Source: a virus
DNA length: 38,691 nt
Virus record (IMG/VR): IMGVR_UViG_3300029305_002455
Reading direction: 5' to 3' (one strand)
The position numbers and the translations under genes are program-made. Under the pieces are notes generated by a model. That model was not told the origin of the DNA, did not search any database, and saw only the letters and a list, made by a program, of their open reading frames with translations. Numbering within the stretch: the stretch's first letter is position 1; every line of letters starts with the position of its first letter. This document shows, piece after piece, positions 2,119-33,151 of this stretch.

Positions 2119-2128
2119 GAGGTAGTTA

Positions 2129-2305: not shown

Positions 2306-2330
2306 GCATAGAGCTTAACCCTCTTTTTTT
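2299..2330 (+). terminator. Rho-independent terminator after the major tail gene
   Basis: 9-bp stem GGGTTAGGC/GCTTAACCC (one G-T), 5-nt loop, then TCTTTTTTT. Confidence 0.6.
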
Positions 2331-2349
2331 ATAAGAAAGAGAGGAAAAA

Positions 2350-2930: not shown

Positions 2931-2945
2931 GGAAGGAGGGAGAAT

Positions 2946-5372: not shown

Positions 5373-6067
5373 TGAGCCATATAATTTGGAAAGATATTGA
5401 TAGTAGAACTATTAAAGGTTTAATTATAAGTGAATTGCCACCTATAACAAAGCCTAAAATGAGAGTTCAAGAAACAAAAATTGATGGAGTTGATGGTTCT
5501 ATAATAGAAGAACTAGGTTATGAAAGTTATGATAAGTCAATGAAAATAGGTCTATCTTATAATTATGATATAGATGAAATTGTTAAATATTTTTCTGGAG
5601 AAAGTAATATTGTATTTAGTAATGAGCCAGATAAATATTATAAAGTAAGAATACTGGACCAAATAGACTATGAAAGATTATTGAGATTTAAAGAAGCAAT
5701 AGTTAAATTTAGAGTTCAGCCTTTTAAATATCTTTATCAAGAGCATAAGTTAGTTTTTGATAATTTAGAAGATAGCATTATAGTTGTAAATAAAGGGTTA
5801 GAAAATTCAAAGCCTATTATAACTATTACAGGAACAGGAACTATTGAATTTAGATTAGAAGATATGTCTATATTCAAATATACATTTCCAGAAGGAGAAG
5901 ATACAGTAATAATTGATAGTGAAAAGCAAGATGCTTATTTAGGTTCAGAATTAAGAAATAGAAATATGATAGGTGAATTTCCTGTATTCAAAAGTGGTAA
6001 AAATAAAATTTCTTTTGATGGAACTATTACCAAATTAGAAGTAGAACCAAAAAGCAGATGGATTTAA
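5372..6067 (+). CDS. Distal tail protein (Dit)
   Basis: 231 aa; TAATG coupling to TMP; Sipho_tail-like N-terminus (...IKGLIISELPPITKPKMRVQETKIDGVDGS...). Confidence 0.65.
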   Translation: MSHIIWKDIDSRTIKGLIISELPPITKPKMRVQETKIDGVDGSIIEELGYESYDKSMKIGLSYNYDIDEIVKYFSGESNIVFSNEPDKYYKVRILDQIDYERLLRFKEAIVKFRVQPFKYLYQEHKLVFDNLEDSIIVVNKGLENSKPIITITGTGTIEFRLEDMSIFKYTFPEGEDTVIIDSEKQDAYLGSELRNRNMIGEFPVFKSGKNKISFDGTITKLEVEPKSRWI

Positions 6068-6079
6068 AGGAGGAATAAT

Positions 6080-6415
6080 ATGAAGAAAGTTTATGAAATT
6101 ACTAGAGGTAACACAAAAGGAATTGAAATAGTAATAAAAGATGGTGAAACTTCAGTAGAAGTTGATGAATTATATTTTACTGTTAAAGAAGATTGTTGTG
6201 TTGAAGAAGTAATATTTCAAAAAAAATTAAGTGAAGAAATCATTTATAAAGATGGTGCTTATTATATAGTTATAAGCCCAGATGATACAAGTTCATTAGA
6301 ATATGGAAGATATGTATATGATATTAAATTTATAAAAGATGGCATCAAGAAAACTATTGAAAAAGGAATATTTTTAGTATCAGAAGAAGTAACATTCGCT
6401 TGTAATGAGGTGTAG
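6080..6415 (+). CDS. Small beta-rich protein, paralog of 13144..13473
   Basis: 111 aa. About one third identical to the 13144 product, with shared RG-T, FQK-L, G-YY-V-I-P-DT and C-terminal EVTF-CNEV. Confidence 0.5.
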   Translation: MKKVYEITRGNTKGIEIVIKDGETSVEVDELYFTVKEDCCVEEVIFQKKLSEEIIYKDGAYYIVISPDDTSSLEYGRYVYDIKFIKDGIKKTIEKGIFLVSEEVTFACNEV

Positions 6416-6417
6416 TT

Positions 6418-8043: not shown

Positions 8044-8044
8044 T

Positions 8045-9694: not shown

Positions 9695-9705
9695 GAGGTG
9701 AAGAT

Positions 9706-12162
9706 ATGGCTTTACAAACGAAAACTTTAATAGCTGATGGTTCAAAAGGACATCATAGATTTTATTTAGATGTAATAGAAGATAGCACTTCAACTTCTGG
9801 TAATACTTCATCTTTAAGTTATGTATTAAGAATAGATGCAACAAGTTGGAATTGGAATGGTTGGGGAAGTAGTATTAAATATACAATAGTAATAGGTAGT
9901 CATACTATTACAGGTACTATTCCAGAAATACCGAAAAATTCAGCCTATACTATTAAAAGTGGTAGTGGTCTTTCAGTTGCACATAACTCGGATGGAAAGA
10001 AATCTATTACTATTAGTTTATCGATAGATGATAATGCAAATCAAAGTTATACTTCTGGAGATGCAAGTGCAAGTGATACAATGACTTTGACAACGATACC
10101 TAGATATTTAACGATAAACTCGTTTTCTGTTAAATTCATAACTGAAACATCAGCAATGGTAACTTGGTCTGTAAGTGATCCAAGAAGTGGCACATATTAT
10201 AGTTTAGATGGTGGTAACACTTGGATAGGCTCTGCCACTTATGGAGAAAGTTTAGCAAGTGATAATAAAAGTGGTTCATTTAATGTAAATGGATTAAATG
10301 CAAATACAAAATATAATATAAAAATTAAAATTAAAAGAACTGATAGTGGATTATGGACTGAAAGTGGTGTAATTGGTTTTACAACTTATGATTACCCACA
10401 TTGTACAAGCACTCCAAATTTTACAATAGGAAATGCTTTAACGATTTCCTTATATAATCCATTAGGAAGGTCTGTAACTATCAAAGGTATTGCTAAAAGT
10501 AATAATACTTCAATATTTGGTGCTACAAATGTTACTGGAACAAGTGCTACTGGTTTTAATGATAGTGATAGTGTTAATGCACAATATTCTAGTATTCCAA
10601 ATGCTAAAAGTGGAACATATAAAGTTGAAGTTACATATGGAAGCATAACTAGAACTAGAGATAATGGAAACACTTATTCAATAAAAGGCACAGAGAAGCC
10701 AACACTTGGTTCTATTACTTATGCAGATACAAATACAACAGTAACTGCAATAACAGGAAATAATCAGCACATAGTACAGAATCAATCGAATTTAAAAGTA
10801 ACTTATACAAAAGCAACTGCAAAAAATAGTGCAAGTATTTCAAAATATACATTTGTATTAAATGGTGTAACAAAAGAAAGTACATCAGCAGGTGGAACGA
10901 TTGATTTTGGAAAGATAAATAGTGCAAATAATTTAACTTTAACTATGACAGTAACAGATAGTAGAGGACTTACTTCAAGTGCAACAAAAACGATAACAAT
11001 GTTAAGTTATTCAGCACCTAATTTTACAACTTCTTTGAAAAGACTTAATAACTATGAAGATACAACATATTTAAAAGTTGATGGTTCTGTATCAAGTGTA
11101 AATGGTAAAAATAAAATAGAAGTTTTACAATACAGATATAAATTAAAAGATGGAAATTATGCAGATTATTATTCAATAGAAGATAATAAAGAATATACAT
11201 TGACTTTAAGCAAAGAAAATATATATATATTTGAAATTATAATTAAAGACACTTTTGGTACAATAGTTGTTAAAAATGCTACTCTAAATAAAGGAGTATT
11301 TCCATTATTTATTGATACAGAAAAGAATGCAGTAGGAATTAATGAATTTCCAAGAGAAGGTGAAGCATTAAGAGTTAAAGATGGAGATATAGTATTAGAA
11401 AAAGCATTAAATGGTTCGCCTAAAATGAAAGTAACTAACGGAAGTGTTAGTGCATCACTTCATGTTGGTGCAGGTGGAGTAAATCGTGGTATATGGGATG
11501 ATACAGATAATAAATGGATGCTATATAATGATGGCACAAATGTATTTTTAAATTCAAATCTTTACCCAATGTCAAGAGGTTATAACAACGAAACAGGCAA
11601 TACCGAATTATTTGATGATGTAGCAGAAGGTGAAAGTTTTTATAGAAGTGGATTATATTCTGCAAGTGTAAGTTCTACTTGGTACAATATAATAAATATT
11701 AGACATAGAAACGGACACGCTGATGGACTAGATTATGGCTTACAAATAAGAAAGGCATTTGGCTTAAATTCAACAATGCAAGTTCGTTCGCAAAATTCTA
11801 AAACCTGGTCTGGATGGGAAGCAATTTATAGAAGCAAAACATTATATGAAAATTCAAGTGGTAGTAATGGAACAGTTACATTGAATGAAACAAGTGCTAA
11901 TTTTACTTATTTGGAAATATTTTATTCAAGTGGTGATACTGTAAATAGTATAAAAGTGTATTCACCAAATGGAAAAAAGGCAAGTTTAATTTCAAGGTCT
12001 GTTGAAACTTCTTTGATGCAAGTTGATTTAGGAATAGTTGTAATATCTGGTACAACATTAACACTTTCAGATTGTAAAAGAGCAAATATTCCTAATGGAG
12101 CAGTTCCACAAATTTGGTCTGCAAGTAACATTTATATAGCAAGAGTAGTTGGTTATAGATAG
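9706..12162 (+). CDS. Tail fibre / host-specificity protein with FN3-like domain
   Basis: 818 aa; Ser/Thr/Asn-rich; ...TETSAMVTWSVSDPRSGTYYSLDGGNTW... resembles a fibronectin-III repeat. Confidence 0.55.
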   Translation: MALQTKTLIADGSKGHHRFYLDVIEDSTSTSGNTSSLSYVLRIDATSWNWNGWGSSIKYTIVIGSHTITGTIPEIPKNSAYTIKSGSGLSVAHNSDGKKSITISLSIDDNANQSYTSGDASASDTMTLTTIPRYLTINSFSVKFITETSAMVTWSVSDPRSGTYYSLDGGNTWIGSATYGESLASDNKSGSFNVNGLNANTKYNIKIKIKRTDSGLWTESGVIGFTTYDYPHCTSTPNFTIGNALTISLYNPLGRSVTIKGIAKSNNTSIFGATNVTGTSATGFNDSDSVNAQYSSIPNAKSGTYKVEVTYGSITRTRDNGNTYSIKGTEKPTLGSITYADTNTTVTAITGNNQHIVQNQSNLKVTYTKATAKNSASISKYTFVLNGVTKESTSAGGTIDFGKINSANNLTLTMTVTDSRGLTSSATKTITMLSYSAPNFTTSLKRLNNYEDTTYLKVDGSVSSVNGKNKIEVLQYRYKLKDGNYADYYSIEDNKEYTLTLSKENIYIFEIIIKDTFGTIVVKNATLNKGVFPLFIDTEKNAVGINEFPREGEALRVKDGDIVLEKALNGSPKMKVTNGSVSASLHVGAGGVNRGIWDDTDNKWMLYNDGTNVFLNSNLYPMSRGYNNETGNTELFDDVAEGESFYRSGLYSASVSSTWYNIINIRHRNGHADGLDYGLQIRKAFGLNSTMQVRSQNSKTWSGWEAIYRSKTLYENSSGSNGTVTLNETSANFTYLEIFYSSGDTVNSIKVYSPNGKKASLISRSVETSLMQVDLGIVVISGTTLTLSDCKRANIPNGAVPQIWSASNIYIARVVGYR

Positions 12163-12173
12163 GAGGTTATAGT

Positions 12174-12467
12174 ATGGCTTTAAAGAAAAATATAACTTTA
12201 GATAATGGAATAGTATTAGATTATCATAGAATAGTTAGTGTAAATAATATTACTAATCAAAACTCGATTATAGAAGTTGCCTCATATATAAATGAAGAAC
12301 AAAGAAACAAAGAAAAAGAATGGTATGAAACAAATAGTCAAGAAGATATGAATGTTTTTATTAATGCTAGATATTATTCTAAAGAATATGATAAAGAGTT
12401 AAATGTTGATAATGCTTATGATTATTTAAAAACATTAGAAGAATTTAAAGATGCAAAGGACTGTTAG
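12174..12467 (+). CDS. Hypothetical protein
   Basis: 97 aa; SD AGGAGG upstream. Confidence 0.5.
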   Translation: MALKKNITLDNGIVLDYHRIVSVNNITNQNSIIEVASYINEEQRNKEKEWYETNSQEDMNVFINARYYSKEYDKELNVDNAYDYLKTLEEFKDAKDC

Positions 12468-12478
12468 GTGGTGATAAA

Positions 12479-12742
12479 GTGGGTGAAATAATAATACCAT
12501 CATTGATTAGTGGAATATTTGCAGTAATAGTTAGTTTAATTACAAGTTCAAGTAGTAATAGAAAAATGGTTAATGAATTTAAGTTAGAAGTAACTAAAAA
12601 TCAAGCAATAACTGATACCAAAATTGAAGAACTAACAAGAGAAGTTAGAGAACATAATAATTTTGCAAGAAGAATGCCAGTTGTTGAAAATGAAATAAAG
12701 CACATAGAAGAAGAAATAGATAGATATCACAAAAAAAATTAA
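12479..12742 (+). CDS. Membrane-anchored coiled-coil protein (possibly lysis-associated, XhlA-like)
   Basis: 87 aa; GTG start with SD AGGTGG; N-terminal TM helix then coiled coil; position before holin. Confidence 0.4.
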   Translation: MGEIIIPSLISGIFAVIVSLITSSSSNRKMVNEFKLEVTKNQAITDTKIEELTREVREHNNFARRMPVVENEIKHIEEEIDRYHKKN

Positions 12743-12756
12743 AGAATGAATTGATT

Positions 12757-12783
12757 AAAGCACTAGAAATAGTGCTTTTCTCT
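12757..12783 (+). terminator. Hairpin terminator (weak T-tract)
   Basis: 8-bp stem AAAGCACT/AGTGCTTT, 6-nt loop, followed by TTCTCT. Confidence 0.45.
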
Positions 12784-12805
12784 ATATAGGAAAGGAAGAT
12801 GAAAT

Positions 12806-13129
12806 ATGAATGAAATTTTAAATGCAATACAACCTTATTTACTTGAAACAATGGTAGCAATATTAACTGGTGTTGCCACTTATATAGGAAGTAAAATTAA
12901 AAAGGTTTATGAAGAAAAGGTTAATACTGAAACAAAAGAAAGAGTTGTTAATACTGTTGTTAATGCAGTTGAACAACTTTACAGGGATTTAAATGGCGAA
13001 GAAAAATTAGAAAAATGTATTGAAAATGCTATTGAAATGCTAAATGAAAAAGGTATAACAGTTACAGATTTAGAATTAAGAATGCTTATTGAAAGTGCAG
13101 TTAATAGTTTTAACAAAGCAATTAAGTAA
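12806..13129 (+). CDS. Holin (LL-H-like)
   Basis: 107 aa; single N-terminal TM (LLETMVAILTGVATYIGS) and charged helical tail, the size and layout of LL-H holins. Confidence 0.55.
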   Translation: MNEILNAIQPYLLETMVAILTGVATYIGSKIKKVYEEKVNTETKERVVNTVVNAVEQLYRDLNGEEKLEKCIENAIEMLNEKGITVTDLELRMLIESAVNSFNKAIK

Positions 13130-13143
13130 AGGAAGTGATTAAT

Positions 13144-13473
13144 ATGGAAATGGTAAGAGGAGATACTTTTGAATTTAAGTTCAAAAGACAAACTAGAGAT
13201 GGAAGAACAATAACATCTAAGCCAGAAAAAATGTATATTACTTTTAAATGTGATGATAATTATAAATGCTTATTTCAAAAAACACTCGAAAAGGGGATTA
13301 CGTTTGATGGGGAATATTATCACGTTGTCATAGATCCTGCTGATACATATAAATTAAGTTTTAAAAAGTATGATTTTGATATTGAAATAATCAATAATGG
13401 AAAGACAAAAACTATTTATGTTGGAGAAATTGAGTTGTTAAAAGAAGTTACATTTAAATGCAATGAGGTGTAA
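13144..13473 (+). CDS. Small beta-rich protein, paralog of 6080..6415
   Basis: 109 aa from ATG 13144 (track start 13135 is a GTG 2 nt after the SD); same C-terminal EVTF-CNEV and same gene junction as the 6080 copy. Confidence 0.5.
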   Translation: MEMVRGDTFEFKFKRQTRDGRTITSKPEKMYITFKCDDNYKCLFQKTLEKGITFDGEYYHVVIDPADTYKLSFKKYDFDIEIINNGKTKTIYVGEIELLKEVTFKCNEV

Positions 13474-13475
13474 GT

Positions 13476-14360
13476 ATGGAAGAAGAACTTATTGTTATAG
13501 AATTAGAAGAAGAACAAGAAATAGTTGTTGTTGAGAATGATATAGAATATATTGCACCAACAACACAAGAAAAAATTATAATACCTAAAAAGGAACAACA
13601 ATTTGTTGTTCCTGATGAGGGTGTTTTTGCTTTATCTAAAGTAACAGTTGAAGCAATACCAAATGAGTATATTAAACCTAATGGAACATTAGATATAACA
13701 GTCAATGGCGAATATGATGTTAAACAATATGAAAAGGCTAATGTTAGTGTTGGTGGAGTTAGTATTAATAATGCAAGATATTTGTTTTATAACAATAACA
13801 GAATAGACCAAATAGAAGAAGTTTTGAGTTTAGTTAGTTCCAATGTTATCGACTATGGGTTTTTATTTCAATATTGCTCAAACTTAACAACAATACCATT
13901 GATAGATATAAGCAACGGAAAAATTTTAGGTAATATGTTTGACGGTTGCTCATCTTTAGTATCAATACCGCAATTAGATACAAGAAATAGTACTGACTGG
14001 TATCAAATGTTTAGAACTTGTAGACAACTAACAACAGTACCACAACTTGATGCAAGTAATTGCAATAGATTACAAGGTTTATTTTTCCAATGCTCAAATT
14101 TAACAACATTAGGTGGCTTCAAAGATTTAGGTAAATCCTATTCAACAACATCAAGCACAAGTACTACACTATATAAATTAGATTTATCCGTTTCAACTTT
14201 ATTAACTCACGAAAGTTTAATGAATGTAATAAATAATTTATATGATATTGCAAGTATTGGAGTTAAACCACAAGATTTAGTATTAGGTGCAACTAATTTA
14301 GCAAAATTAACAGAAGAAGAAATAGCAATAGCCCAAACAAAGGGTTGGAATGTTTCATAG
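13476..14360 (+). CDS. BspA-type leucine-rich-repeat protein (putative virion adhesin / second RBP)
   Basis: 294 aa. About 23-aa repeats (...FQYCSNLTTIPLIDIS..., ...FDGCSSLVSIPQLDT..., ...FRTCRQLTTVPQLDAS..., ...FFQCSNLTTLGG...). N-terminal ...VVPDEGVFALSKVTVEAIPNEYIKPNGTLDITVNGEYDV... as in phage structural LRR proteins. Confidence 0.6.
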   Translation: MEEELIVIELEEEQEIVVVENDIEYIAPTTQEKIIIPKKEQQFVVPDEGVFALSKVTVEAIPNEYIKPNGTLDITVNGEYDVKQYEKANVSVGGVSINNARYLFYNNNRIDQIEEVLSLVSSNVIDYGFLFQYCSNLTTIPLIDISNGKILGNMFDGCSSLVSIPQLDTRNSTDWYQMFRTCRQLTTVPQLDASNCNRLQGLFFQCSNLTTLGGFKDLGKSYSTTSSTSTTLYKLDLSVSTLLTHESLMNVINNLYDIASIGVKPQDLVLGATNLAKLTEEEIAIAQTKGWNVS

Positions 14361-14369
14361 GAGGAAAGT

Positions 14370-14549
14370 ATGGAAATAATAGAAACAAAATTAAAAAAAT
14401 TAATTGCAAGTGAGGGTAAATTACTTGTGCCAAAAACAATAAATTATGATGAAGATGGAAATGAAATACCAAGACAAGGTGCAAAAGTAGTTTATTTAGC
14501 AATTAGTGGAAACGAAAGCGATTATGAAGAAATAGAAGATGCTCAATAG
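14370..14549 (+). CDS. Small hypothetical protein (59 aa, below track cut-off)
   Basis: ATG 14370 with SD AGGAGG 5 nt upstream; MEIIETKLKKLIASEGK... Confidence 0.4.
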   Translation: MEIIETKLKKLIASEGKLLVPKTINYDEDGNEIPRQGAKVVYLAISGNESDYEEIEDAQ

Positions 14550-14561
14550 GGCATCTTTTTA
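14536..14561 (+). terminator. Rho-independent terminator
   Basis: Stem AAGATGC/GCATCTT, 8-nt loop, T-run. Confidence 0.5.
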
Positions 14562-14579
14562 TATTAGGAGGAATGAATT

Positions 14580-15440
14580 ATGAATAATTTAGAATTTGTA
14601 AATAAGGCTATTGATATAGCAAAAAACTATAAAACACTATATGTAATGGGATGCTTTGGAGCACCAATGACAGAAAGTAATAAAACAAGATATTGTAAAA
14701 ATCATAGTTACAATAAACAAGCATCAAGAACTAAAATGATAAAGAATGCTAGTGCAGATACATTTGGTTTTGATTGTGTATGTTTAATAAAAGGTATTCT
14801 TTGGGGATGGAATGGAAATAAAAACAAAGTATATGGTGGAGCAAATTATGCTTCTAATGGAGTGCCAGATGTAAGTGCAGATGGTATGATTGCAAAATGT
14901 TCTGGAGTATCAACTAACTTTTCTAATATGGAAAAAGGTGAAGTTGTATGGATGAAAGGACATATAGGTATTTATATTGGAGATGGACTTGCAGTAGAAT
15001 GTACTCCTTCTTGGAGCAATAAAGTTCAAATAACTGCAGTTGGAAATATAGGTAATAAAGCAGGTTATAATACTAGAAAATGGACTAAAAGAGGAAAGTT
15101 GCCTTATATAACATATATAAAAGAAGTAACTCCAGAAAAGGGATCTGAAACTAAAAAAACAGTTGATGAATTAGCAAAAGAAGTTTTAGAAGGTAAGTGG
15201 GGTAATGGTTCAGAAAGAAAGAAAAGATTAACTGATGCAGGTTATGATTATTCAGCAGTTCAAAAGAAAGTAAATGAATTAGCAAAAAAACCTACTTATA
15301 AAACTCATATAGTTAAAAAAGGAGAAACATTAAGTGGAATTGCTAAAAAGTATGGAACAACATATCAAAAAATAGCAAAAGATAATAACATCAGCAATCC
15401 TAATAAGATAAGTGTAGGACAAAAGTTGATTATAAAATAA
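14580..15440 (+). CDS. Endolysin: cysteine peptidase (NlpC/P60- or Amidase_5-like) + CW_7 + LysM
   Basis: 286 aa. Motifs: [11 protein letters not shown] (Cys), [10 protein letters not shown] (His); [26 protein letters not shown] (Cpl-7/CW_7); C-terminal [33 protein letters not shown]...ISVGQKLII (LysM). Confidence 0.8.
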
Positions 15441-15526: not shown

Positions 15527-17062
15527 TTATATTTTCATAAAAAGTTCTATGATGAAATTGGACCTAGCATCTTCGTTCCACCTGCCACCTTTGTCTTTTT
15601 CATATGTAATTTTATCAATTATATAAGATAGTAGTTTATTTCTGTCTGCCATAGATAAAGAGTGATATTCGTTTAAGCAATTTTCAATAACAGGTATAGC
15701 CTTTATTTTGTGATTAAGTTCTGCATTTTCCAACTGACTATTTAAAGTGCTTTTTAAGGCATTTAAGCGATTTTCTTCTTCTCTAGTATAATTCCTTAAA
15801 AAAGTATATTCATCTTCAGTAATCTTGTTTCTATTGTAGTTTACAAGTGCATTTTGCAAATCTTTGTTTAAAAGTTCTAGTTCTTTGTCAATTTTATTGA
15901 TTTTTTTATCAATAGCATTAGTTGATGTTTTAATTTCTTCTTCATAGTTATCTAAAAATTGTTTATAACTATTTAGTTCTTTTTTTAGAAGTTCTATAAC
16001 TCTATCTTCAACTAAAGTTAAGTCAGAAGATACACATTTGCATCCAATAGTTTTGCATATTAAAGTTGGAACAGGTCTTTTGTCATAAGGTCTTCTAACC
16101 ATATTAGAGCCACAGTATTTGCATTTTACAAGTCCTGCAAGTGGATTTTTAATAGTTTTATCACTTCTAACATTTTTAGATGCTTTAGATTTAAGCAACT
16201 CTTGTGCTTTATTAAAAATATCTTCACTTATTATAGGAGTATGTAAGCCTTTAACTCTTAAGTAGTCATTGTTAACAGGTCGAGATTTTAATATTTCGCC
16301 ATCTTGCATAGTTTTTTTGCCTTCCCTTCTGCCATAAGAAACATAGCCAATATATATTTCGCTCATTAAAATGTTTCTAGTCATTGCAGGTGTCCATTGT
16401 TTGCCAGTATGACTTTTTATTCCTAGTTCAATTAAATGTTTTGCGAGATTAGTTGTTCCCATACCTTCAAGGAATTTTTCAAATATGTATTTTACATTTT
16501 CAGTATCTTTATTTGGAGTTAGAGTATAACCCTTTTTAGGCAGTTTGATTTTATCATAACCATAAGGAGCAACAGAACCGATATAAAGCCCATCTTCGAC
16601 ACTTCTAATCCTGCCCCTAACTAGAATCTCTTTTACATATTCCAAGTAGTCATTGCCCCTTAAAAGTTCTTGTTCAAAATATTTTCTATCGAATTTATTG
16701 TTTAAATCATAAACTTTAGTTGGAGTAATTACTTTAGTATTAGTATATTTAAAAGTGTTTACTATTCTATCAATGTCGCCAAAACTACCACGAGAAAGTC
16801 TTTGTGGTTCAACAACTATGACATCATCAACAAGTCCTAGTTCTATATCTTTTAGTAATTTTAGCATCATAGGTCTTTCATTTATAGTTTCGCCAGATAC
16901 AACTTCACGATATATGCAATCTTCAGGGATCTGTTTTCCAAAAACTCTTATGCAGTAGTCTTGTAACATTTTTTCGTGTCTTGATAAAACTTCTTCAACA
17001 CTTTCAGATTGATTGTCAGTCCTTGATTTTCTCAAGTACATTATGATTTTTCGCCTTATCAT
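15527..17062 (-). CDS. Large serine recombinase (integrase)
   Basis: 511 aa; N-terminal resolvase motif YLRKSRTDNQ; recombinase domain; Cys-rich zinc ribbon (CKYCGS...CKTIGCKC); coiled-coil C-terminus; SD AGGAG 8 nt before ATG 17062. Confidence 0.9.
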   Translation of the reverse strand: MIRRKIIMYLRKSRTDNQSESVEEVLSRHEKMLQDYCIRVFGKQIPEDCIYREVVSGETINERPMMLKLLKDIELGLVDDVIVVEPQRLSRGSFGDIDRIVNTFKYTNTKVITPTKVYDLNNKFDRKYFEQELLRGNDYLEYVKEILVRGRIRSVEDGLYIGSVAPYGYDKIKLPKKGYTLTPNKDTENVKYIFEKFLEGMGTTNLAKHLIELGIKSHTGKQWTPAMTRNILMSEIYIGYVSYGRREGKKTMQDGEILKSRPVNNDYLRVKGLHTPIISEDIFNKAQELLKSKASKNVRSDKTIKNPLAGLVKCKYCGSNMVRRPYDKRPVPTLICKTIGCKCVSSDLTLVEDRVIELLKKELNSYKQFLDNYEEEIKTSTNAIDKKINKIDKELELLNKDLQNALVNYNRNKITEDEYTFLRNYTREEENRLNALKSTLNSQLENAELNHKIKAIPVIENCLNEYHSLSMADRNKLLSYIIDKITYEKDKGGRWNEDARSNFIIELFMKI

Positions 17063-17417
17063 TGTATAATCTCCTACATAGATTTATTTGTTGTTTTAAT
17101 AGGTCTAGCAAGTCTTTTTTTGCTTCATAGGGTAAATCATCAACTGAAGTCAGAATGTCCTTTAAATCATACTCAAATGAGTTATTTTGGGTAAGTCCTA
17201 ACAACTCTGATGGTTTGATATTCAAGACTGCACATATTTTATTGACAGTAGAAGTAGGCATAGTAGATATTTTTCCTGCTTCATATCTTGAAATGCTACT
17301 TTCAGTAAGTCCTACCTTTTCAGCAAGTTGGTATTGAGTGAGATTTAAGGATTTTCTTCGTTCTTTAATTTTAGAACCGATTTCTTTATAGTTTAGATTT
17401 TCCATAATTTTCTTCAA
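17016..17417 (-). CDS. CI-like repressor (XRE-family HTH)
   Basis: 133 aa; ...LNLTQYQLAEKVGLTESSISRYEAGK... HTH; divergent from the early genes; overlaps the integrase start by 47 nt. Confidence 0.75.
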   Translation of the reverse strand: MKKIMENLNYKEIGSKIKERRKSLNLTQYQLAEKVGLTESSISRYEAGKISTMPTSTVNKICAVLNIKPSELLGLTQNNSFEYDLKDILTSVDDLPYEAKKDLLDLLKQQINLCRRLYNDKAKNHNVLEKIKD

Positions 17418-23079: not shown

Positions 23080-23112
23080 GTAAAATGAAAACAAAAAAGG
23101 GAAGTGCTTAAG

Positions 23113-23913
23113 ATGAAAGATAGTTTTGTATTTTATAGGAGTTTTTATGAGAGTATAGGAAACCTAGATAAAGATATACAGTTAGAAATATATAATGCTA
23201 TATGTGAGTATTCATTGAATGATAAAAATCCAGAATTATCTCCAATAGCAACTGCAATATTTACATTGATAAAGCCTAATATAGATAATGCAACAAAAAG
23301 GTATAATGCTAGTGTTGAAAATGGTAAAAAAGGTGGTAGACCTAAAAAAAATGAAAACCTAAAAAAACCTAACGAAAACCTAAAAAAACCTAACAATAAC
23401 CTAGATGAAACCCAAGACAAACCTAATGAAAACCTTAATGTATATGTATATGTAGATGAAGATGTAGATGATAATGATAATTTATATGTAGATGAGGATG
23501 AGGATGTAAATATAGATGAAGATATTAAAAAAGCAAATATACTTTCCTCCCAGCCAAAAGATGAAGAAATATTAAAATCTGAATTTAATGAATTATGGAA
23601 GTTATACCCTAAAAAGGTTGGTAAAGAAAAATCATTTACTAAATACAAAAAGTATAGAACTTCTAAAGGTGATGAATATTGCACTTATGATGAAGTATTA
23701 AGTGGACTTAATAGATATTTAAAATACATAGAGCAAAATAGTTGGTATAGTCCAAAAGATGGTTCAACTTGGTTTAATAATAGAAGTTGGAATGATGAAT
23801 ATGAATTGAAAGAAGATAAAGTTCCAACTTGGTTTAATCAAAATACAGAAGAAGAACCAATAAATGAAGATAGTAAAAAAGAATTAGAAGAATTGCTGAA
23901 AGAATTTAGGTGA
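23113..23913 (+). CDS. Replisome organiser / replication initiator with internal origin repeats
   Basis: 266 aa from ATG 23113. N-terminal ...FVFYRSFYESIGNL...EIYNAICEY...; C-terminal ...LWKLYPKKVGKEKSFTKYKK... motif; iterons inside the gene. Confidence 0.55.
   Translation: MKDSFVFYRSFYESIGNLDKDIQLEIYNAICEYSLNDKNPELSPIATAIFTLIKPNIDNATKRYNASVENGKKGGRPKKNENLKKPNENLKKPNNNLDETQDKPNENLNVYVYVDEDVDDNDNLYVDEDEDVNIDEDIKKANILSSQPKDEEILKSEFNELWKLYPKKVGKEKSFTKYKKYRTSKGDEYCTYDEVLSGLNRYLKYIEQNSWYSPKDGSTWFNNRSWNDEYELKEDKVPTWFNQNTEEEPINEDSKKELEELLKEFR
23338..23440. repeat. Iteron array (candidate ori): exact tandem 21-mers GAAAACCTAAAAAAACCTAAC x2 plus further AACCTA units
   Basis: 23353..23373 and 23374..23394 are identical; partial units on both sides. 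Followed by ATGTAGATGA-type repeats to about 23530. Confidence 0.6.
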
Positions 23914-23917
23914 TAGT

Positions 23918-24283
23918 GTGAGAAAGTTAAATAAATTATACTTTTTAAAAATGGAAATAGATGAAATAAAAAAAGAAATAAGTAATTTAACAGAAATAGG
24001 TTCTCCTGCAATAACAGGGATGCCACATAGTAATTCTGTTAGTGATCCAGTATCACAATACTTTATGAAGAAACAAAGATTAACGGAAAAACTTAATAAA
24101 AAATTAGAAAGATACATTGATGAATTAACAAGAGTTGAAAACATCATTGATAATATAGAAGATGCAGATATAAGATTGATTGCCAGATTAAGATTTGTAG
24201 ATAATCTGGAATGGAAAGAAATATCAAAAAAGGTCCATTTAGATAGGACAGTTTGTTATAGAAAAATAAAAAAGTATTTATAA
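23918..24283 (+). CDS. ArpU/RinA-type (sigma-70 region-4-like) late transcription regulator
   Basis: 121 aa; ...GSPAITGMPHSNSVSDPV... then ...ADIRLIARLRFVDNLEWKEISKKVHLDRTVCYRKIKKYL (HTH). Confidence 0.45.
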   Translation: MRKLNKLYFLKMEIDEIKKEISNLTEIGSPAITGMPHSNSVSDPVSQYFMKKQRLTEKLNKKLERYIDELTRVENIIDNIEDADIRLIARLRFVDNLEWKEISKKVHLDRTVCYRKIKKYL

Positions 24284-26177: not shown

Positions 26178-26376
26178 TAGTACATTATCTCATCTTAATA
26201 GAAATGCTTTAGTTAAAACAATAAAAGAATTATATGCAATTAGAGATGAAGCAATAGAATATATAGAAAATAATAGTTCTAAATACGATAGAACAGGTGA
26301 TGGTTATACTTTTTTAGATGAAGATGAAATAAAGCCATTATTAGATATATTACAAGGTAATAAGGAGAATAAATGA
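26161..26376 (+). CDS. Hypothetical protein
   Basis: 71 aa. Confidence 0.45.
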   Translation: MKKLSDSTLSHLNRNALVKTIKELYAIRDEAIEYIENNSSKYDRTGDGYTFLDEDEIKPLLDILQGNKENK

Positions 26377-26438
26377 TTTTATTCATATTAGCAATTATAT
26401 TTATATTATATTGCATATTGAAAATTGGAAAGGATTAA
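26373..26438 (+). CDS. Tiny hydrophobic peptide (21 aa): MILFILAIIFILYCILKIGKD
   Basis: ATGA overlap with the upstream stop; SD AAGGAG 5-6 nt upstream; same design as 20066..20134. Confidence 0.35.
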   Translation: MILFILAIIFILYCILKIGKD

Positions 26439-26439
26439 T

Positions 26440-26472
26440 TTGCACACAAAACACAATTTGAAATGATATAAT
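26440..26472 (+). promoter_or_regulatory. Promoter-like element P1: TTGCAC, 21-nt spacer, TGaTATAAT
   Basis: Extended -10 TGATATAAT at 26464..26472; the upstream box TTTGCACACAAAACA recurs at 26860. Confidence 0.45.
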
Positions 26473-26478
26473 GATATT

Positions 26479-26845
26479 GTGATAATATAAAATCACGATA
26501 GAACCCATAATAAAATAGCAACTTTATAAGTTGCTACATAGTAGACAACCATTTTTCGTTAATCTCAATTAACAAATGGATGCTATCTTTTTATATTTCA
26601 TTGTCTGCTATGTAGGTGCTTATAAAAAACACCAATGATCCATAATAAAAAAGTGCTATCTTAATTGATAGCATACTAAATAATATGAAAAATTACTAAA
26701 GAAGTAAGGAATGTATGAATGAAAATTTAGAGTAATATTATTTAGTATGGTGTCTATATTAAGATACTACTCCCGACAACTAAAGGAGTATAAATATAAG
26801 GTTGCTAGAAAAGCGATAGAACATAGAAATATGGTCTATTTTTTA
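26479..26845 (+). ncRNA. Candidate about 365-nt structured non-coding RNA (ends approximate; strand not certain)
   Basis: ORF-free. Contains a 9-bp hairpin (26516..26536), a 15-bp long-range helix (26534..26548 with 26601..26615), an enclosed 12-bp hairpin (26549..26579), a 7-bp hairpin (26654..26673), a 15-bp perfect helix (26672..26686 with 26735..26749), and a GAAA-loop hairpin plus T-run (26816..26845). Confidence 0.4.
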
Positions 26846-26860
26846 AAGATAAAATGAAAT

Positions 26861-26894
26861 TTGCACAAAAAACAACATAAATATGTAGTATAAT
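26861..26894 (+). promoter_or_regulatory. Promoter-like element P2: TTGCAC, 22-nt spacer, TATAAT
   Basis: Same TTTGCACA-AAAACA box as P1; TATAAT at 26889..26894. Confidence 0.4.
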
Positions 26895-26900
26895 AGTAAA

Positions 26901-26971
26901 GTAAGGTTATTGAATCTTACAAGCAATTCTCTTTTTTGTAAAGCCATAGTAAAATATGGCTTTATTTTTTT
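26901..26971 (+). ncRNA. Candidate about 70-nt sRNA (P2 to terminator)
   Basis: Lies between TATAAT (26889..26894) and a strong terminator; 5-bp hairpin GTAAG/CTTAC (26901..26920); no ORF. Confidence 0.4.
26940..26971 (+). terminator. Rho-independent terminator
   Basis: 9-bp stem AAAGCCATA/TATGGCTTT, 6-nt loop, then ATTTTTTT. Confidence 0.75.
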
Positions 26972-27002
26972 ATAGAGAATAGCAAAGAAAATGGAGGATT
27001 GT

Positions 27003-27593
27003 ATGGAAGAAAAAAGAATAGAAGTTGTAGAATTAAAAGTTTCAGAATTGAAAACCGATTTTGGAAACCCAAGAAAGATTAATAAAAAGAAGTTAGAAGA
27101 ATTGGAACAGTCATTAGATACCTATGGAGATTTTGGTCTTATATTAGTTGATGAAAACAATAATATTATTGCAGGAAATCAAAGAGTATCAGTATTAAAA
27201 AATAAAGATGAAGATACAAAGGTTTTATGCAAAAGATTAATTGGTTATACAGAAGCAGAATTAAGAGCAATAAACATAAAAGATAACACTCATAACGGAG
27301 AATGGGATCTAGATTTATTGGCAGACTGGACTGCAGATTTGAATTTAGATTTAGGAATAGATTTAGATAATACTAACCCAGAAGAAAAAAGCATTCCAGA
27401 TATGGAGTTAATACATTATGAAAAGTATGATTATGTAATGATAGTTTGTAGATATGAAACAGATTATAATGACCTAGTAAGAAAATTAGGTATTGAAGGT
27501 AAGAAAGTAAAGATATGCAAGACTAGAAAAATAAAAGCCAGAGCAATTTGGTATGAAGATATGAAAGCACAAATTATTGAAAAGGAGAATTAG
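27003..27593 (+). CDS. ParB/Srx-type N-terminal domain protein (no methylase or ParA partner)
   Basis: 196 aa from ATG 27003 (SD GGAGG 5 nt upstream); ...LKTDFGNPRKI... and ...IIAGNQRVSVL... correspond to ParB-NTD boxes. Confidence 0.6.
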   Translation: MEEKRIEVVELKVSELKTDFGNPRKINKKKLEELEQSLDTYGDFGLILVDENNNIIAGNQRVSVLKNKDEDTKVLCKRLIGYTEAELRAINIKDNTHNGEWDLDLLADWTADLNLDLGIDLDNTNPEEKSIPDMELIHYEKYDYVMIVCRYETDYNDLVRKLGIEGKKVKICKTRKIKARAIWYEDMKAQIIEKEN

Positions 27594-28262
27594 ATGAATT
27601 ATTTATTTGTAGTAGCACATCCAGATGATGAAGTATTAGGAGCAGGAGCAACAATTAATAAATTAATTAAAGAAGGAAATGAAGTAACAGTTTGCATATT
27701 AAGTGATAATTCCAAAACTAGATTTGATAATTTAAAAGATAAATTATATAAAAGTCATAAGATATTAGGAATAAAAAATACAATAATAGGTGATTTTAGA
27801 TGCTTGAACTTTAAAGATGAACCACATCAAGAAATGGTCCAATTTATAGAAGAATCAATAAGAATTAGCAAACCAGATATAGTGTTTACTCATACTCCAT
27901 CAGACATAAACCCAGACCACGAAGCAACTGCATTGTCTTGTATAGAAGCAGTAAGATTGCCACAAAGGTTGCTAGATTATAATAAGCCAATTAAGGAATT
28001 GTTATATATGGAAGTTAAATCATCTACTGATTGGCAGTTAAATAGAACAGTACAAGAGTTTTTACCTAACACATATAATGAAGTTAGTAAAGAAGATATG
28101 GAAAAGAAAATAGCAGCACTCAAAGTATATGATGGTGTAGTAAGGGATGATCCACATCCTAGAGCAGAAAATGTAATTAATGCACTAGCAGTAGTAAGAG
28201 GTAGCGAAAGTGGTTATAAATATGCAGAAGCATTCCAAAGTGTTTTTAAGTTAGGAGTTTAG
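27594..28262 (+). CDS. LmbE/PIG-L family de-N-acetylase
   Basis: 222 aa; VVAHPDDEVLGAG and HTPSDINPDHEA (zinc ligands of the PIG-L fold). Confidence 0.75.
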   Translation: MNYLFVVAHPDDEVLGAGATINKLIKEGNEVTVCILSDNSKTRFDNLKDKLYKSHKILGIKNTIIGDFRCLNFKDEPHQEMVQFIEESIRISKPDIVFTHTPSDINPDHEATALSCIEAVRLPQRLLDYNKPIKELLYMEVKSSTDWQLNRTVQEFLPNTYNEVSKEDMEKKIAALKVYDGVVRDDPHPRAENVINALAVVRGSESGYKYAEAFQSVFKLGV

Positions 28263-28265
28263 AAG

Positions 28266-28964
28266 ATGAAGATAGCAATACATCAGCCAGATTATATTCC
28301 TTGGTTAGGTTATTTTTATAAGATATACTTGTCAGATGTTTTTGTATTTTTAGATGATAGTCAGTTCCAGAAGAACTATTTGAATAATAGAAATAAGATA
28401 AAGACACCACAAGGATGGACCTATTTAACAATACCAGTTGAAAGAAAAGATGGACTTTCAACTAATATCAATGAAACTAGAACAATAGATGAAATGAACT
28501 GGAAAGAAAAGCATCTGAAAGCATTAGAAATGAATTATAAAAGATGCCCTTATTTTAATGAAATATTCCCAGAAATAAAGGAATTAATAGAAAAAGAATA
28601 TAATAATTTGGCAGAATTAAATGAAGCCTTAATTATTCATATAGCGACTAAATTTGGAATATTACCAAAGGTTGTAGTAGCATCATCAACATTAAATATT
28701 AAAAGCACTAAAGAAGAAAGAGTATTAGAAATATGCAAAAGATTTAATGCAGATGAATATTTATCTGGAAATGGTGCTAAAGATTATCAGAATGAAGAAG
28801 ATTTTATAAAAGAAGGCATAAAATTAACCTATATAAATTATAAGCCGATAAAGTATAGTCAAAGATTTGGCGAGTTTATAGAATGTATGTCAGTATTAGA
28901 TTATATATTTAATAAAGGTTATGATTTTGAATACATCATAGGAGAAATAGAAGGTACAGTATGA
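28266..28964 (+). CDS. WbqC-like family protein
   Basis: 232 aa; MKIAIHQPDYIPWLGYFYKI...FLDDSQFQK...NRNKIKTPQGWTYLTIPV is the family's N-terminal signature. Confidence 0.65.
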   Translation: MKIAIHQPDYIPWLGYFYKIYLSDVFVFLDDSQFQKNYLNNRNKIKTPQGWTYLTIPVERKDGLSTNINETRTIDEMNWKEKHLKALEMNYKRCPYFNEIFPEIKELIEKEYNNLAELNEALIIHIATKFGILPKVVVASSTLNIKSTKEERVLEICKRFNADEYLSGNGAKDYQNEEDFIKEGIKLTYINYKPIKYSQRFGEFIECMSVLDYIFNKGYDFEYIIGEIEGTV

Positions 28965-29674
28965 AAGAAGTTACATTAGGAATTTATGTTCAAAGTTATA
29001 AAAGAAGTGATAAGATATTAACTGCTAATCTTTTAGAAGATTGTACTTATGTAGTAAGAAAATCAGAAGAAGAAGATTATAAAAAGGCAGGAATAAAGAA
29101 AATATGGGCGATAGATGATGAATTAATAAATAATGCAATAAAAACATACTGGTATATCATAACAAATGCTCCAGAAGATATAGTTTTTGTAGCAGATGAT
29201 GATATAGAAGATTTAATGTATAGATTAGATGATACAACACCAATGAAGCAAGACAAAGAAACCATAATGGCAGAAATAGAAAGAGTTGCACAATTAATGG
29301 TTGATTTAAAGGTCGGTTATGCTTGTATAGATGCAACTGCTACTCCATATAACTATGATGGAGAATTTGCATTTAAAGGTACTTCTGGCTCAATTAAATG
29401 GGTATATAAAGAAGTATTCAAAGCAAAGATGGATGAAAGTGTACCATTTAACTATGATTTAGATTTAGTATTGCAGGAGTTACTATATAATAGAATCATC
29501 TTAAAACCTAGATATATAGTAGGTAAAGATTATCAAGATACTAATGCAGGAGGCGATAGTAGTAAGAAAAGGCAACAACAAATAGATAGTATATCTAATA
29601 TGCAGTTAAAATGGGGAAAGTATTTTGGTTATAACTTCAAAAGCAATAAACCAAAAATAAATGTAAAAAGATAG
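28961..29674 (+). CDS. Hypothetical enzyme-like protein with DxD-type acidic motif (possible GT-A-like transferase)
   Basis: 237 aa; 4-nt overlap with the WbqC-like gene; beta-alpha start (VTLGIYVQSYKRS...) and VFVADDDIED; the call is weak. Confidence 0.25.
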   Translation: MKEVTLGIYVQSYKRSDKILTANLLEDCTYVVRKSEEEDYKKAGIKKIWAIDDELINNAIKTYWYIITNAPEDIVFVADDDIEDLMYRLDDTTPMKQDKETIMAEIERVAQLMVDLKVGYACIDATATPYNYDGEFAFKGTSGSIKWVYKEVFKAKMDESVPFNYDLDLVLQELLYNRIILKPRYIVGKDYQDTNAGGDSSKKRQQQIDSISNMQLKWGKYFGYNFKSNKPKINVKR

Positions 29675-31329: not shown

Positions 31330-32001
31330 ATGGCTTATGAATTAATAACCAAGAATGGACACAATATGTATGATATGGCATCAATGTTACAAAAAGCAAT
31401 AAGAAGAAATGATGTAGAAAGAGCAAGTTATGCAGGTTACCAATTATTTGGTAACTTCCATACTTACTTATGGAAACGATTGGTTGTAATATCAGCAGAA
31501 GATTGTTATGGAATAATAACAAAAGAAATAATAGCATTAAAGTTAGCAGATGATGAAGTAAACAAAGGAAAGAAAGGTTATAACAAAGACCCATTATTTG
31601 TAGCCAAAGCAATAGTTCTGTTATGTATGGCAAGAAAGAATAGGGATGCTTGTTATGTTGCTTGTAACTTTATGCTACCAGATAAAATACTAGATGAAGA
31701 TGAAATAGAACACATAGATATTTCAAAAGTAGAATTAAAAGGAGATATACCAGATTGGGTGTTTGATGTTCATACATTGAAAGGAAAGATAAATGGAAAG
31801 ACAGATTTAGATATGACAATATCAGAACAAAGAGCATTAACACCACATCAAGTAGGATTATTTGATGACGCAAGTTGGGAACCATACTATACAATGGCAA
31901 GAAGTCAAGGGAAATGTAATGACAGGGAATGGGCAAAATTCCAACAATTCAAACAAGGCAAAGAAGCCAATCCACAACAAGTAAACATAATAGAAGATTA
32001 A
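31330..32001 (+). CDS. Stand-alone MgsA/RarA C-terminal-domain-like protein (no AAA+ module)
   Basis: 223 aa from ATG 31330 (SD AAGGAG 9 nt upstream). ...MYDMASMLQKAIRRNDVERASYA..., ...KRLVVISAEDCYG..., ...AKAIVLLCMARKNRDACY... align with the MgsA_C motifs HYD-ISA-HKS-RGSD, RRL-I-ASEDIG, A-IYLA-APKSN. Confidence 0.55.
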   Translation: MAYELITKNGHNMYDMASMLQKAIRRNDVERASYAGYQLFGNFHTYLWKRLVVISAEDCYGIITKEIIALKLADDEVNKGKKGYNKDPLFVAKAIVLLCMARKNRDACYVACNFMLPDKILDEDEIEHIDISKVELKGDIPDWVFDVHTLKGKINGKTDLDMTISEQRALTPHQVGLFDDASWEPYYTMARSQGKCNDREWAKFQQFKQGKEANPQQVNIIED

Positions 32002-32025
32002 AGGACCTATAAGGTCCTTTTTTTA
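32001..32025 (+). terminator. Rho-independent terminator
   Basis: Stem AAGGACC/GGTCCTT, 5-nt loop, T7. Confidence 0.7.
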
Positions 32026-32744: not shown

Positions 32745-33110
32745 TATACGAGCCTGTATTACGAGATACGGAGGGCGTGTACGGAGAACGAGTATAATAC
32801 GAGAATATATATGCGATATATATGATTAACTCGGTGTACTCGATATATTACAAACCATAATAACAATAACAATAATAAAAAAATAATTTTAAAACCATAA
32901 AGCAAAGATAAAGGAAATGATATATAGATATGATAATAGAAATAATAATATTAATAATTTCATTTATAATATTAAACTTATTAATAATAATATCAAAACA
33001 TAAAGAAGAAATATGGGAAGAAATATACAAGATGTTGAAGTAGCATCCCCCCTACCCAAAAGATGAAAATGGTGTAGTTGATACCACACCCACACCAACA
33101 CTTCTTTATA
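32745..33110. other. Candidate cos / terminase-recognition region
   Basis: Three parts: a GC-enriched block with 6 direct (T/A)ACG(A/G)AG words (32747..32803) and inverted CTCG words (32829..32843); an extremely AT-rich tract of about 200 bp; and a C-rich block GCATCCCCCCTACCC...CCACACCCACACC (33044..33100). Confidence 0.45.
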
Positions 33111-33151
33111 CACAAAATTCCCTAAAAAAGAAATTGGAAAGGAGAATGATA

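Follow-up and report, generated by a model that had tools for sequence, protein, structure and literature searches.

We examined a stretch of 38,691 nucleotides (nt) from the IMG/VR virus record IMGVR_UViG_3300029305_002455, referred to below as the window, and in particular an island of 552 nt (26439-26990) within it that is free of long open reading frames (ORFs) and rich in predicted RNA helices. The window represents the 38.7-kb genome of a temperate phage with a GC content of 28% and with genes that lie nearly all on the plus strand. Its main features are arranged as follows:

1-15440: structural and lysis genes
15527-17417, minus strand: large serine integrase and cI-like repressor
next, rightward early genes: ERF, SSBs, NinB, a RusA-like resolvase, the DUF6291 replication protein (23104-23913) and a run of small ORFs
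23918-24283, plus strand: a protein of 121 aa with a sigma-region-4-like C-terminal domain, directly after the DUF6291 replication gene; candidate box-binding regulator
26439-26990: the island
after the island: the ParB_N-like gene (27003-27593), PIG-L, WbqC, a TAGT-like glycosyltransferase, ArdA, HNH, terS (33134) and terL

The order of the genes, from early genes via the island to the ParB_N-like gene and on to the terminase genes, therefore places the island at the early/late junction. The reading that we favour, with modest confidence, is that the island constitutes a two-unit transcription-control region, set between the early/replication genes and a rightward operon headed by the ParB_N-like and DNA-modification genes, with the packaging and structural genes probably following as part of that operon.

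The original prediction for this island, made from the letters alone, had proposed at least one structured RNA of about 365 nt, reminiscent of the large phage-borne RNAs of the ROOL/GOLLD class, next to a small RNA of about 70 nt. The elements on which it was built are real, as every helix, box and repeated word was recovered in the sequence, with starts that were off by at most one base. The two look-alike boxes TTTGCACA(C/A)AAAACA are found at 26439-26453 and 26860-26874 (one base to the left of where they had been put) and the associated TATAAT words at 26467-26472 (within TGATATAAT) and 26889-26894. The island is also the most structure-dense part of the window: the predicted fold of its plus strand has an energy of -130.1 kcal/mol, as compared to -87.0 ± 5.8 kcal/mol for dinucleotide shuffles (z = -7.4), that of the minus strand -115.0 kcal/mol (z = -5.6), and in a sliding scan of the whole phage (windows of 150 nt, with regression on GC) 10 of the 20 plus-strand windows with the greatest excess of structure were located in 26451-27050. 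The structured left part of the island (26439-26857) is referred to as unit A and the right part, up to the ParB_N-like gene (26858-27002), as unit B. Unit B comprises:

26858-26874 and 26889-26894, plus strand: promoter P2, consisting of box AATTTGCACAAAAAACA and -10 hexamer TATAAT; kept in L138, L140-L144, L147, L172 and L175
26901-26920, plus strand: hairpin H1 (GTAAGGTT-ATTG-AATCTTAC), 8 pairs, beginning at about +2 of the P2 transcript
26923-26932, plus strand: anti-Shine-Dalgarno word GCAATTCTCT, nearly invariant
26938-26971, plus strand: intrinsic terminator T2 (predicted), 11-bp stem, 6-nt loop and T7 run
26974-26980, plus strand: decoy AGAGAAT, conserved, just after the T run
26993-27005, plus strand: Shine-Dalgarno sequence GGAGG within GGAGGATTGT, and ATG of the ParB_N-like gene; alternative partner of the anti-Shine-Dalgarno word

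Relatives were collected by a protein search with the ParB_N-like protein, which yielded a graded series (97, 94, 93, 87, 84, 83 and 77% identity) for which the contigs were fetched (L-numbers denote such loci). Unit B was present directly upstream of the gene in all fetched relatives with a ParB-like identity of at least 83% (L138-L147, L172), where the 140-170 nt before the gene align to 26858-27002 at 79-87% nucleotide identity. The order of the elements is conserved throughout: box AATTTGCAC(A/G)AAAAA(T/A)CAC, 8-10 variable bases, (G)TGnTATAAT, H1 (GTAAG...CTTAC), GCAATTCTCT with a T run (26923-26937), T2, AGAGAAT, an A-rich spacer, GGAGGATTGT and ATG. In the alignment of 11 unit B sequences (A1), 96.9% of the cells in H1, T2 and the outer helix were paired, against 39-51% when the partners were slid by 1-3 columns, and eight pairs had changed on both sides, a number that was matched in none of 500 shuffles. 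H1 accounts for two of these double changes (95.5% of cells paired over the 11 sequences, with G-U pairs on the plus strand only) and T2 for six, all in one lineage (100% of cells paired), while C-G has become U-G in the T2 stem of five sequences; in L145 and L146 a different hairpin replaces T2 at the same place. The U-G pairs in T2 and the G-U pairs in H1 would be A-C mismatches on the minus strand and it is therefore the plus-strand RNA that has been maintained. T2 has the make-up of an intrinsic terminator, i.e. a stable stem-loop (9-11 bp) directly followed by a U run and kept in the homologues, and it is the only plus-strand terminator in the island that passed our scan, which required at least three G-C pairs in the stem; termination itself is predicted.

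The proposed small RNA of about 70 nt stood in part. The unit from promoter to terminator is real and conserved, with compensatory changes and strand-specific G-U pairs, and we would sooner regard it as a 5' leader belonging to the downstream operon than as a small RNA gene in its own right, although it may be both. Judged from the sequence comparison, unit B is a conserved cis-regulatory leader, which probably yields a terminated RNA of about 70 nt. A covariance model built on it recovered the element in L175, where it precedes a different gene (30.8 bits, E = 0.008), and gave no match beyond close relatives in 684 kb of loci. The same L175 was the one true relative that came out of a pattern scan for box, -10 and GTAAG. 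The 24 matches to the unit B core pattern in IMG/VR were all attributed to chance, and the strict unit B pattern had no match in a metagenome collection that lacks even the source phage.

The leader appears to contain a switch at the ribosome-binding site. RNAalifold pairs GCAAUUCUCU with the ribosome-binding-site region GGAGGAUUGU in a 10-bp helix (98% of cells paired), and GCAAUUCUCU can alternatively pair with AGAGAAU, just past the T run; the anti-Shine-Dalgarno word is able to pair with AGAGAAT or GGAGGATTGT in all homologues. The CAATTCTCT part of GCAATTCTCT is identical in all 11 sequences (the first G is an A in L143) and both partners of the word are perfect GAGAATTG 8-mers in L145 and L146. 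When the read-through leaders of eight homologues were folded, two states of nearly equal energy were obtained for all eight. The state in which the Shine-Dalgarno sequence is masked had the minimum free energy (MFE) in seven, with the free, decoy-paired state 0.4-3.4 kcal/mol higher; in the remaining one (L145) the free state was the MFE fold.

The box in front of unit B is not limited to that unit. The 17-nt box has two occurrences in the whole window, both inside the island, and the same geometry of box and -10 recurs in related loci (13 promoter instances in 10 contig sets), in line with the earlier description of the twin boxes as promoter-like. The pattern consists of an invariant box AATTTGCACAAAAAA(T/A)CA, 21-22 nt upstream of an (extended) -10 TATAAT. 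From this recurrence the look-alike boxes are a genuine, recurring promoter type, the activity of which we infer. What follows the box differs from case to case. L140 (position 3014) and L144 (position 1843) have a second box about 1.9 kb upstream, followed by a leader of about 45 nt that ends in a terminator of its own (AACATCTA-AAGAAA-TAGATGTT and a T run), and then by a ribosome-binding site and genes encoding a 132-aa protein and a DUF285 protein; in L143 that same ~45-nt leader is joined directly to unit B; in L147 a copy of the box is followed by a hairpin-rich, terminated stretch of about 170 nt and a small Cys-rich ORF, before unit B; and in L175 the box and H1 are combined with a different terminator in front of a different gene. 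The leaders behind the boxes differ and the box is the sole shared element, which points to a factor that recognises DNA at the promoter and not an RNA site common to the leaders; most likely, the box serves a phage regulator as its site on the DNA. Gaps without homology to the island, in front of more distantly related ParB-like genes (L004, L019, L031, L173), likewise have a plus-strand terminator just before the first gene.

Some further matches to the promoter were obtained. Unrelated gut-phage contigs in IMG/VR (L096, L098/L100 and L103) carry TTTGCACACAAAACA-N13-TATAAT. In L096 and L098/L100 a terminator closes the short, hairpin-rich stretch that comes next; the L103 locus ends before any terminator. 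The design may thus be more widespread than this lineage, or the TTTGCACACAAAACA matches may be chance occurrences in promoter-like DNA. A search of IMG/VR with the pattern of box and TATAAT gave 13 matches, which were unrelated and promoter-like and were set aside. Hexamers that resemble a -10, as would be looked for in the sigma-dependent, promoter-proximal pause of a lambda-type Q module, are found just downstream of the predicted start sites (TAAGAT in H1 and TGTGATAAT after P1); such words are common in DNA of 28% GC.

The best candidate for the regulator that would bind the box is the 121-aa protein encoded at 23918-24283. It matches DUF1492, which corresponds to the LtrB family of late activators (PMC3753634), with E = 3.7e-4 and 21.0 bits, just under the Pfam cut-off of 21.5, and has a weak match to region 4 of extracytoplasmic function (ECF) sigma factors; its homologues have precomputed matches to DUF722 and DUF1492. 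In the AlphaFold2 model (mean predicted local distance difference test score, pLDDT, of 84) a segment of about 50 residues can be superposed on sigma region 4 (-35-binding) domains, with Foldseek probabilities of mostly 0.9-1.0 and root-mean-square deviations of mostly 1.6-3 Å, although with E values of about 0.5-2, while a comparison of the protein's profile with PDB sequences gave coiled-coil noise only. The protein also keeps company with the box: it is 77, 69 and 52% identical in the box-keeping relatives L138, L172 and L147, respectively, and 33% identical in L145 and L146, in which the box is different.

Put together, the island would work as two tandem units of one design, in each of which a promoter specific to the phage is followed by a stretch that is transcribed but not translated, and then by an intrinsic terminator. 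The P2 transcript would present H1 first, then GCAAUUCUCU with its U run and then T2, where most polymerases are expected to halt, with the release of an RNA of about 70 nt. In the leader made by read-through, GCAAUUCUCU(UUUUU) would mask the ribosome-binding site GGAGGAUUGU, or pair with the decoy AGAGAAU and leave the site free. The first gene would therefore be gated twice, by termination and by masking of its ribosome-binding site. The 121-aa protein would act as an activator of the Ltr type or as a factor that makes the polymerase terminator-resistant. Unit A would fill, as an accessory, a variable cargo slot that lies between a first box promoter and unit B. It does not code for protein, is probably transcribed to the right from P1 as far as t1 or T2, and would be made up of two paralogous palindromic modules; the core circuit would have no need of unit A.

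There are several points that weigh against this reading. The promoters and their start sites are predicted, as is termination; the six double changes in T2 all represent one event, in the L145/L146 lineage, and the independent lineages are few; and the anti-Shine-Dalgarno, decoy and Shine-Dalgarno words barely vary, so that their pairing is consistent with the data and unproven by covariation. An antiterminator of the Q or N family was not recognised among 41 ORFs of the window that were scanned against Pfam, PHROGs or NCBIfam, a comparison that very small or divergent proteins could escape. In the published layout of Ltr systems the ltr gene abuts the terS promoter and a terminator precedes that promoter (PMC3753634), whereas here P2 follows the candidate gene at a distance of 2.6 kb and terS at about 9 kb, and the terminator comes after the promoter. 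Lastly, the strong fold of unit A, its own promoter and terminator and its compensated helices would also fit a functional RNA. The features of unit A on which that alternative is built are:

26437-26453 and 26464-26472, plus strand: promoter P1, consisting of box AATTTGCACACAAAACA and extended -10 TGATATAAT; identified from the sequence, geometry shared with relatives
26475-26500, plus strand: first hairpin of the P1 transcript in the MFE fold, 9 bp including one U-G; the 3' arm carries copy 2 of CGATAGAAC
26505-26626, plus strand: module M1, with CCATAATAAAA, a perfect 9-bp hairpin (26516-26536) and an interrupted inner hairpin (26549-26579) enclosed by a 15-bp long-range helix (26534-26548 with 26601-26615, 14 Watson-Crick pairs and one T:G, extendable to 26 nt at 85%)
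26640-26757, plus strand: module M2, likely a paralogue of M1, with CCATAATAAAA, a perfect 7-bp hairpin (26654-26673) and a perfect 15-bp long-range helix (26672-26686 with 26735-26749, extendable to 23 nt at 87%)
26768-26790, plus strand: 6-bp hairpin TACTCC/GGAGTA
26795-26807, plus strand: TATAAGGTTGCTA, complementary to 26516-26528, in a helix that closes M1 and M2 in the MFE fold
26816-26845, plus strand: t1, proposed end of the unit A transcript; weak terminator-like hairpin (26816-26839, 9 of 10 pairs) with GAAA loop and T6 run

The t1 stem has only two G-C pairs and fell below the criterion of the terminator scan. The recurrence of CCATAATAAAA at 26505 and 26640 and of CGATAGAAC at 26496 and 26814 had been pointed out before; CGATAGAAC has a third exact copy, at 26286, in the upstream ORF. 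The three copies (26286-26294, 26496-26504 and 26814-26822) fall within 540 nt, where 0.03 would be expected, CGATAGAAC was not found in any relative, and the repeats may represent a target-site duplication or a protein site. A direct duplication of 26263-26330 at 26790-26860 is of marginal significance (p ~0.04).

The 365-nt RNA of the original prediction corresponds to a rival reading, in which unit A (26479-26845) would have a function as a structured non-coding RNA, specific to this lineage and representing a new family, and would bring along a promoter and a terminator of its own: a previously undescribed RNA cargo of about 365 nt with two paralogous domains of about 120 nt. Such an RNA could act in trans, for instance as a decoy of host functions or as an anti-defence RNA, or in cis as an antiterminator like HK022 put, in which case it would mediate read-through of t1, T2 and the terminator at 32000; we consider this unlikely. 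Its fold is non-random (z = -5.9 for 26479-26846; for M1, -33.6 kcal/mol and z = -6.6 on the plus strand, -27.3 kcal/mol and z = -3.6 on the minus strand), the plus strand of the island is favoured by about 15 kcal/mol and M1 includes a G-U pair. It starts with a copy of the conserved box promoter and ends in a terminator-like hairpin, and L147 has a different terminated RNA of about 170 nt in the same slot. M1 and M2 have CCATAATAAAA and TATG..GGTGyyTAT as shared flanks, and in each of them a 15-bp long-range helix comes after a small hairpin. When their 12-bp helices are aligned on CATA/TATG, the three differing pairs are all compensated, next to one change from U-G to U-A. The overall identity of M1 and M2 is 49%, however, and the argument from compensation is only as strong as that homology. 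Moreover, the perfect 15-bp arms and the imperfect palindromes of 23-26 nt look like young duplications at the level of the DNA.

The searches for relatives of unit A also speak against a functional RNA. An Rfam cmscan of the whole window gave no match at the gathering score, and neither did eight relatives; over the island, at E <= 10, there were eight noise matches (11.6-20.3 bits, with cut-offs of 44-79), none of which was ROOL, GOLLD or another large RNA, and the proposed kinship with the ROOL/GOLLD class is thereby given up. Genes for tRNA or tmRNA were not found in the window. Neither blastn nor nhmmer nor translated searches gave a homologue of unit A in about 180 related or pattern-matched loci, or in the collections of GenBank phages (near and distant modes) and plasmids (PLSDB), which contained no match to the island. 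The phage itself was not recovered from these two collections or from the IMG/VR collection searched. A tblastn of 24,869 ORF translations from all loci against the island gave no match in the body of unit A; the matches were confined to 26803-26999, i.e. unit B and its immediate left flank, and reflect nucleotide homology. No significant antisense target of the island was found within the phage. In the GTDB representative genomes the homologues of the ParB-like protein, which occur in Lachnospiraceae, Oscillospiraceae, Ruminococcus and even Bacteroidota, are at most 70% identical (apart from one partial match of 66 residues at 79%) and none has the island. The upstream side was no more productive: the homologues of the 71-aa gene that precedes the island (L108-L112) lose similarity at 26376-26379 and are followed by other genes without an island, and the MazG-like upstream gene has no relatives in IMG/VR. 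Fourteen contigs with identical flanking proteins represent the same phage; their islands are 100% identical and therefore uninformative.

Unit A is absent from L138, L140-L142, L144 and L172. These relatives without unit A include ones with ParB-like proteins that are 87-97% identical, L138 and L172 share the replication module as well, and L138 lacks unit A despite a Rep that is 84% and a regulator that is 77% identical. Missing from most of the closest relatives, unit A is therefore dispensable. Its slot varies freely among close relatives, an outcome that the original prediction had named as counting against its RNA: the slot is empty elsewhere, or holds protein genes (132-aa, DUF285), a small Cys-rich ORF or other short leaders. 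As far as the sequences collected here reach, unit A is private to one phage lineage and not a member of a widespread RNA class.

The free variation of the slot also fits a second rival, to which we assign a similarly low probability, in which unit A is a non-functional passenger: a leader that lost its cargo (P1...t1) and was expanded by a palindromic insertion of about 309 nt (26505-26813) that resembles a miniature inverted-repeat transposable element (MITE). The CGATAGAAC 9-bp direct repeats bracket this segment and a 13-nt subterminal inverted repeat (26516-26528 and 26795-26807) closes it. Removal of the segment leaves a leader of about 47 nt with t1, much like the ~45-nt leaders of L140, L143 and L144, and L143 demonstrates that cargo genes can be lost with retention of the leader. 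The direct repeats are separated from the inverted repeats by 11 and 6 nt, however, and not adjacent to them as in a MITE, and the third copy of CGATAGAAC lies in the upstream ORF; furthermore, the window contains no transposase and the putative element was found in a single copy over the loci and the phage and plasmid collections.

The space to the left of the island, 26373-26438 on the plus strand, is filled by a strongly hydrophobic ORF of 21 aa (MILFILAIIFILYCILKIGKD) with a good ribosome-binding site (AAGGAG), which is below the size range of the gene callers and homology tools that we used. Its start codon shares bases with the stop of the 71-aa ORF (ATGA), and the small ORF is translationally coupled to that upstream gene.

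The original prediction had remarked that the A-runs preceding two hairpins would make these into terminators for leftward transcription, and indeed 26516-26536 and 26654-26673 score as terminators for the minus strand only. This opens a reading in which the two hairpins end leftward small RNAs and M1 and M2 are paralogous minus-strand genes for such RNAs, possibly antitoxins for the 21-aa ORF. The terminators share the tail TTTT(TT)ATTATGG, the minus strand folds well (M2 z = -4.3, next to the value given above for the island) and a small hydrophobic peptide ORF adjoins. We nevertheless judge it very unlikely, as a convincing minus-strand promoter was not found to the right of either module, and the predicted RNAs end at about 26505 and 26645 and do not overlap with the 21-aa ORF, which ends at 26438, in contrast to the layout of type I toxin-antitoxin pairs. 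In addition, the coupled 21-aa ORF is not independently transcribed, the G-U pair of M1 becomes an A-C mismatch on the minus strand and M1 is 6 kcal/mol less stable there.

A role of the island at the level of the DNA, as a replication origin or as a binding array for the ParB-like protein, had also been put forward. The AT-rich palindromes and the thrice-repeated 9-mer could be read in that way, and the island adjoins the ParB_N-domain gene and lies 2.5 kb downstream of the Rep gene. Yet L138 and L172, which share the Rep (84 and 68%) and the ParB-like gene (97 and 87%), are without unit A and CGATAGAAC, so that the element does not travel with the initiator gene as an origin would. Among 80 IMG/VR loci of the ParB-like gene (59-72% identity) none has DNA similarity to the island and most are without an upstream gap, the gene abutting the preceding one. 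A ParB that serves in partition is expected to have HTH and dimerisation domains and usually comes with a ParA. The protein here matches ParB_N-type profiles only and heads a PIG-L/WbqC/glycosyltransferase cassette instead of a partition operon, and the strand-specific G-U covariation in unit B points to RNA. Both versions of a DNA-level site are disfavoured and we regard such a site as extremely improbable.

Several observations were made elsewhere in the window. The ParB_N-like gene heads a cassette (27003-29674) that includes the PIG-L deacetylase, WbqC and the TAGT-like glycosyltransferase. In relatives (L145-L147, L172, L173) the middle genes are a DegT aminotransferase and an NAD epimerase/dehydratase, or an Orn/DAP-decarboxylase-like and an ATP-grasp enzyme, while the ends, i.e. 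the first gene and the last (237-aa, glycosyltransferase-like), are constant. By its gene content the cassette looks like a modular system for DNA hypermodification or glycosylation. A strong plus-strand intrinsic terminator (32000-32020, 9-bp stem with four G-C pairs and T run) is located within the rightward operon at the stop of a 232-aa gene, and is followed by a ribosome-binding site, without a recognisable promoter or box. The island had been described as the only long non-coding gap of the genome; it is the longest, and a second one of about 390 nt (32745-33133), between HNH and terS, contains only short minus-strand ORFs. This second gap is very AT-rich, has near copies of the word CCATAATAA and a terminator-like hairpin on the minus strand (33090-33071), and is probably the cos/packaging region. 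The third most over-structured plus-strand window of 150 nt in the phage (15401-15550) is situated where the endolysin gene and the integrase gene run towards each other, and probably serves as a terminator in both directions or as the attP region.

If the interpretation as a two-unit control region is correct, this group of uncultured gut phages of low GC would have a compact and reusable module for the control of the DNA-modification and late operon, in which a box promoter bound by a regulator is combined with a terminator directly behind it and a switch that masks the ribosome-binding site, and would employ the same type of promoter for accessory cassettes. The candidates that we offer are a cis element of about 145 nt, a regulator of 121 aa and a short RNA as default product, which might have a role of its own in lysogens, like StxS. 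If, on the other hand, unit A is the functional RNA of the rival reading, then unit A and the different RNA of about 170 nt in L147 would define a slot in which non-coding RNA cargo is exchanged, in the manner of morons.

The island can be compared to a number of known systems. Like ROOL and GOLLD, which are roughly 600-800 nt long as compared to about 365 nt for unit A, it is a large, ORF-free and structure-rich stretch in a phage context; unlike these, it has no covariance-model match even at the permissive threshold, and unit A, being without homologues, does not display a conserved multi-stem core. Unit A resembles phage morons in having its own promoter and terminator and in occupying a slot that is empty or filled with unrelated cargo in close relatives; it differs from them in that it has no credible ORF and in that the cassette shares its regulated promoter type with the neighbouring operon. 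Unit B has in common with leaders that sequester the ribosome-binding site (attenuators, RNA thermometers, expression platforms of riboswitches) that an anti-Shine-Dalgarno word can pair with the Shine-Dalgarno sequence or with a nearby decoy in two folds of near-equal energy, here located downstream of a terminator. It is unlike riboswitch-type leaders in that it has no conserved internal loop that resembles a ligand pocket and no Rfam match, the whole element amounting to about 105 nt with two simple hairpins and the switch. The Ltr super-family of late activators of Gram-positive phages includes RinA, ArpU, LtrA (sigma70_r4), LtrB (DUF1492) and LtrC (PMC3753634, PMC3152322), and the likeness to these systems is found in a small phage protein with weak DUF1492/DUF722 matches and a predicted sigma-region-4-like fold, and in a specific promoter element upstream of the late operon that diverges along with the protein. 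The closest analogue of unit B would be the lambda pR'-6S-tR' or StxS module, in which the promoter runs into a terminator and the default product is a short RNA, 6S or StxS (PMC7547250). As in the lambdoid phages (PMC7547250), the early/late junction of this temperate phage has a promoter with an intrinsic terminator no more than about 70 nt further on, before the downstream operon (P2 -10 at 26889-26894, T2 at 26938-26971, gene start at 27003). The position in the genome is equivalent as well, after genes of the NinB/RusA type, and a further terminator (32000-32020) is found within the operon. In contrast to the lambdoid module, with which there is no relationship in sequence or in Rfam, a Q-family protein was not recognised, the conserved DNA element, a candidate binding site, is upstream of the -10 (approximately -41 to -27), the leader would in addition mask the first gene's ribosome-binding site, and accessory cassettes make use of this promoter type as well. 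Unit B would thus represent the late-promoter/terminator design, varied by the addition of a switch at the ribosome-binding site.

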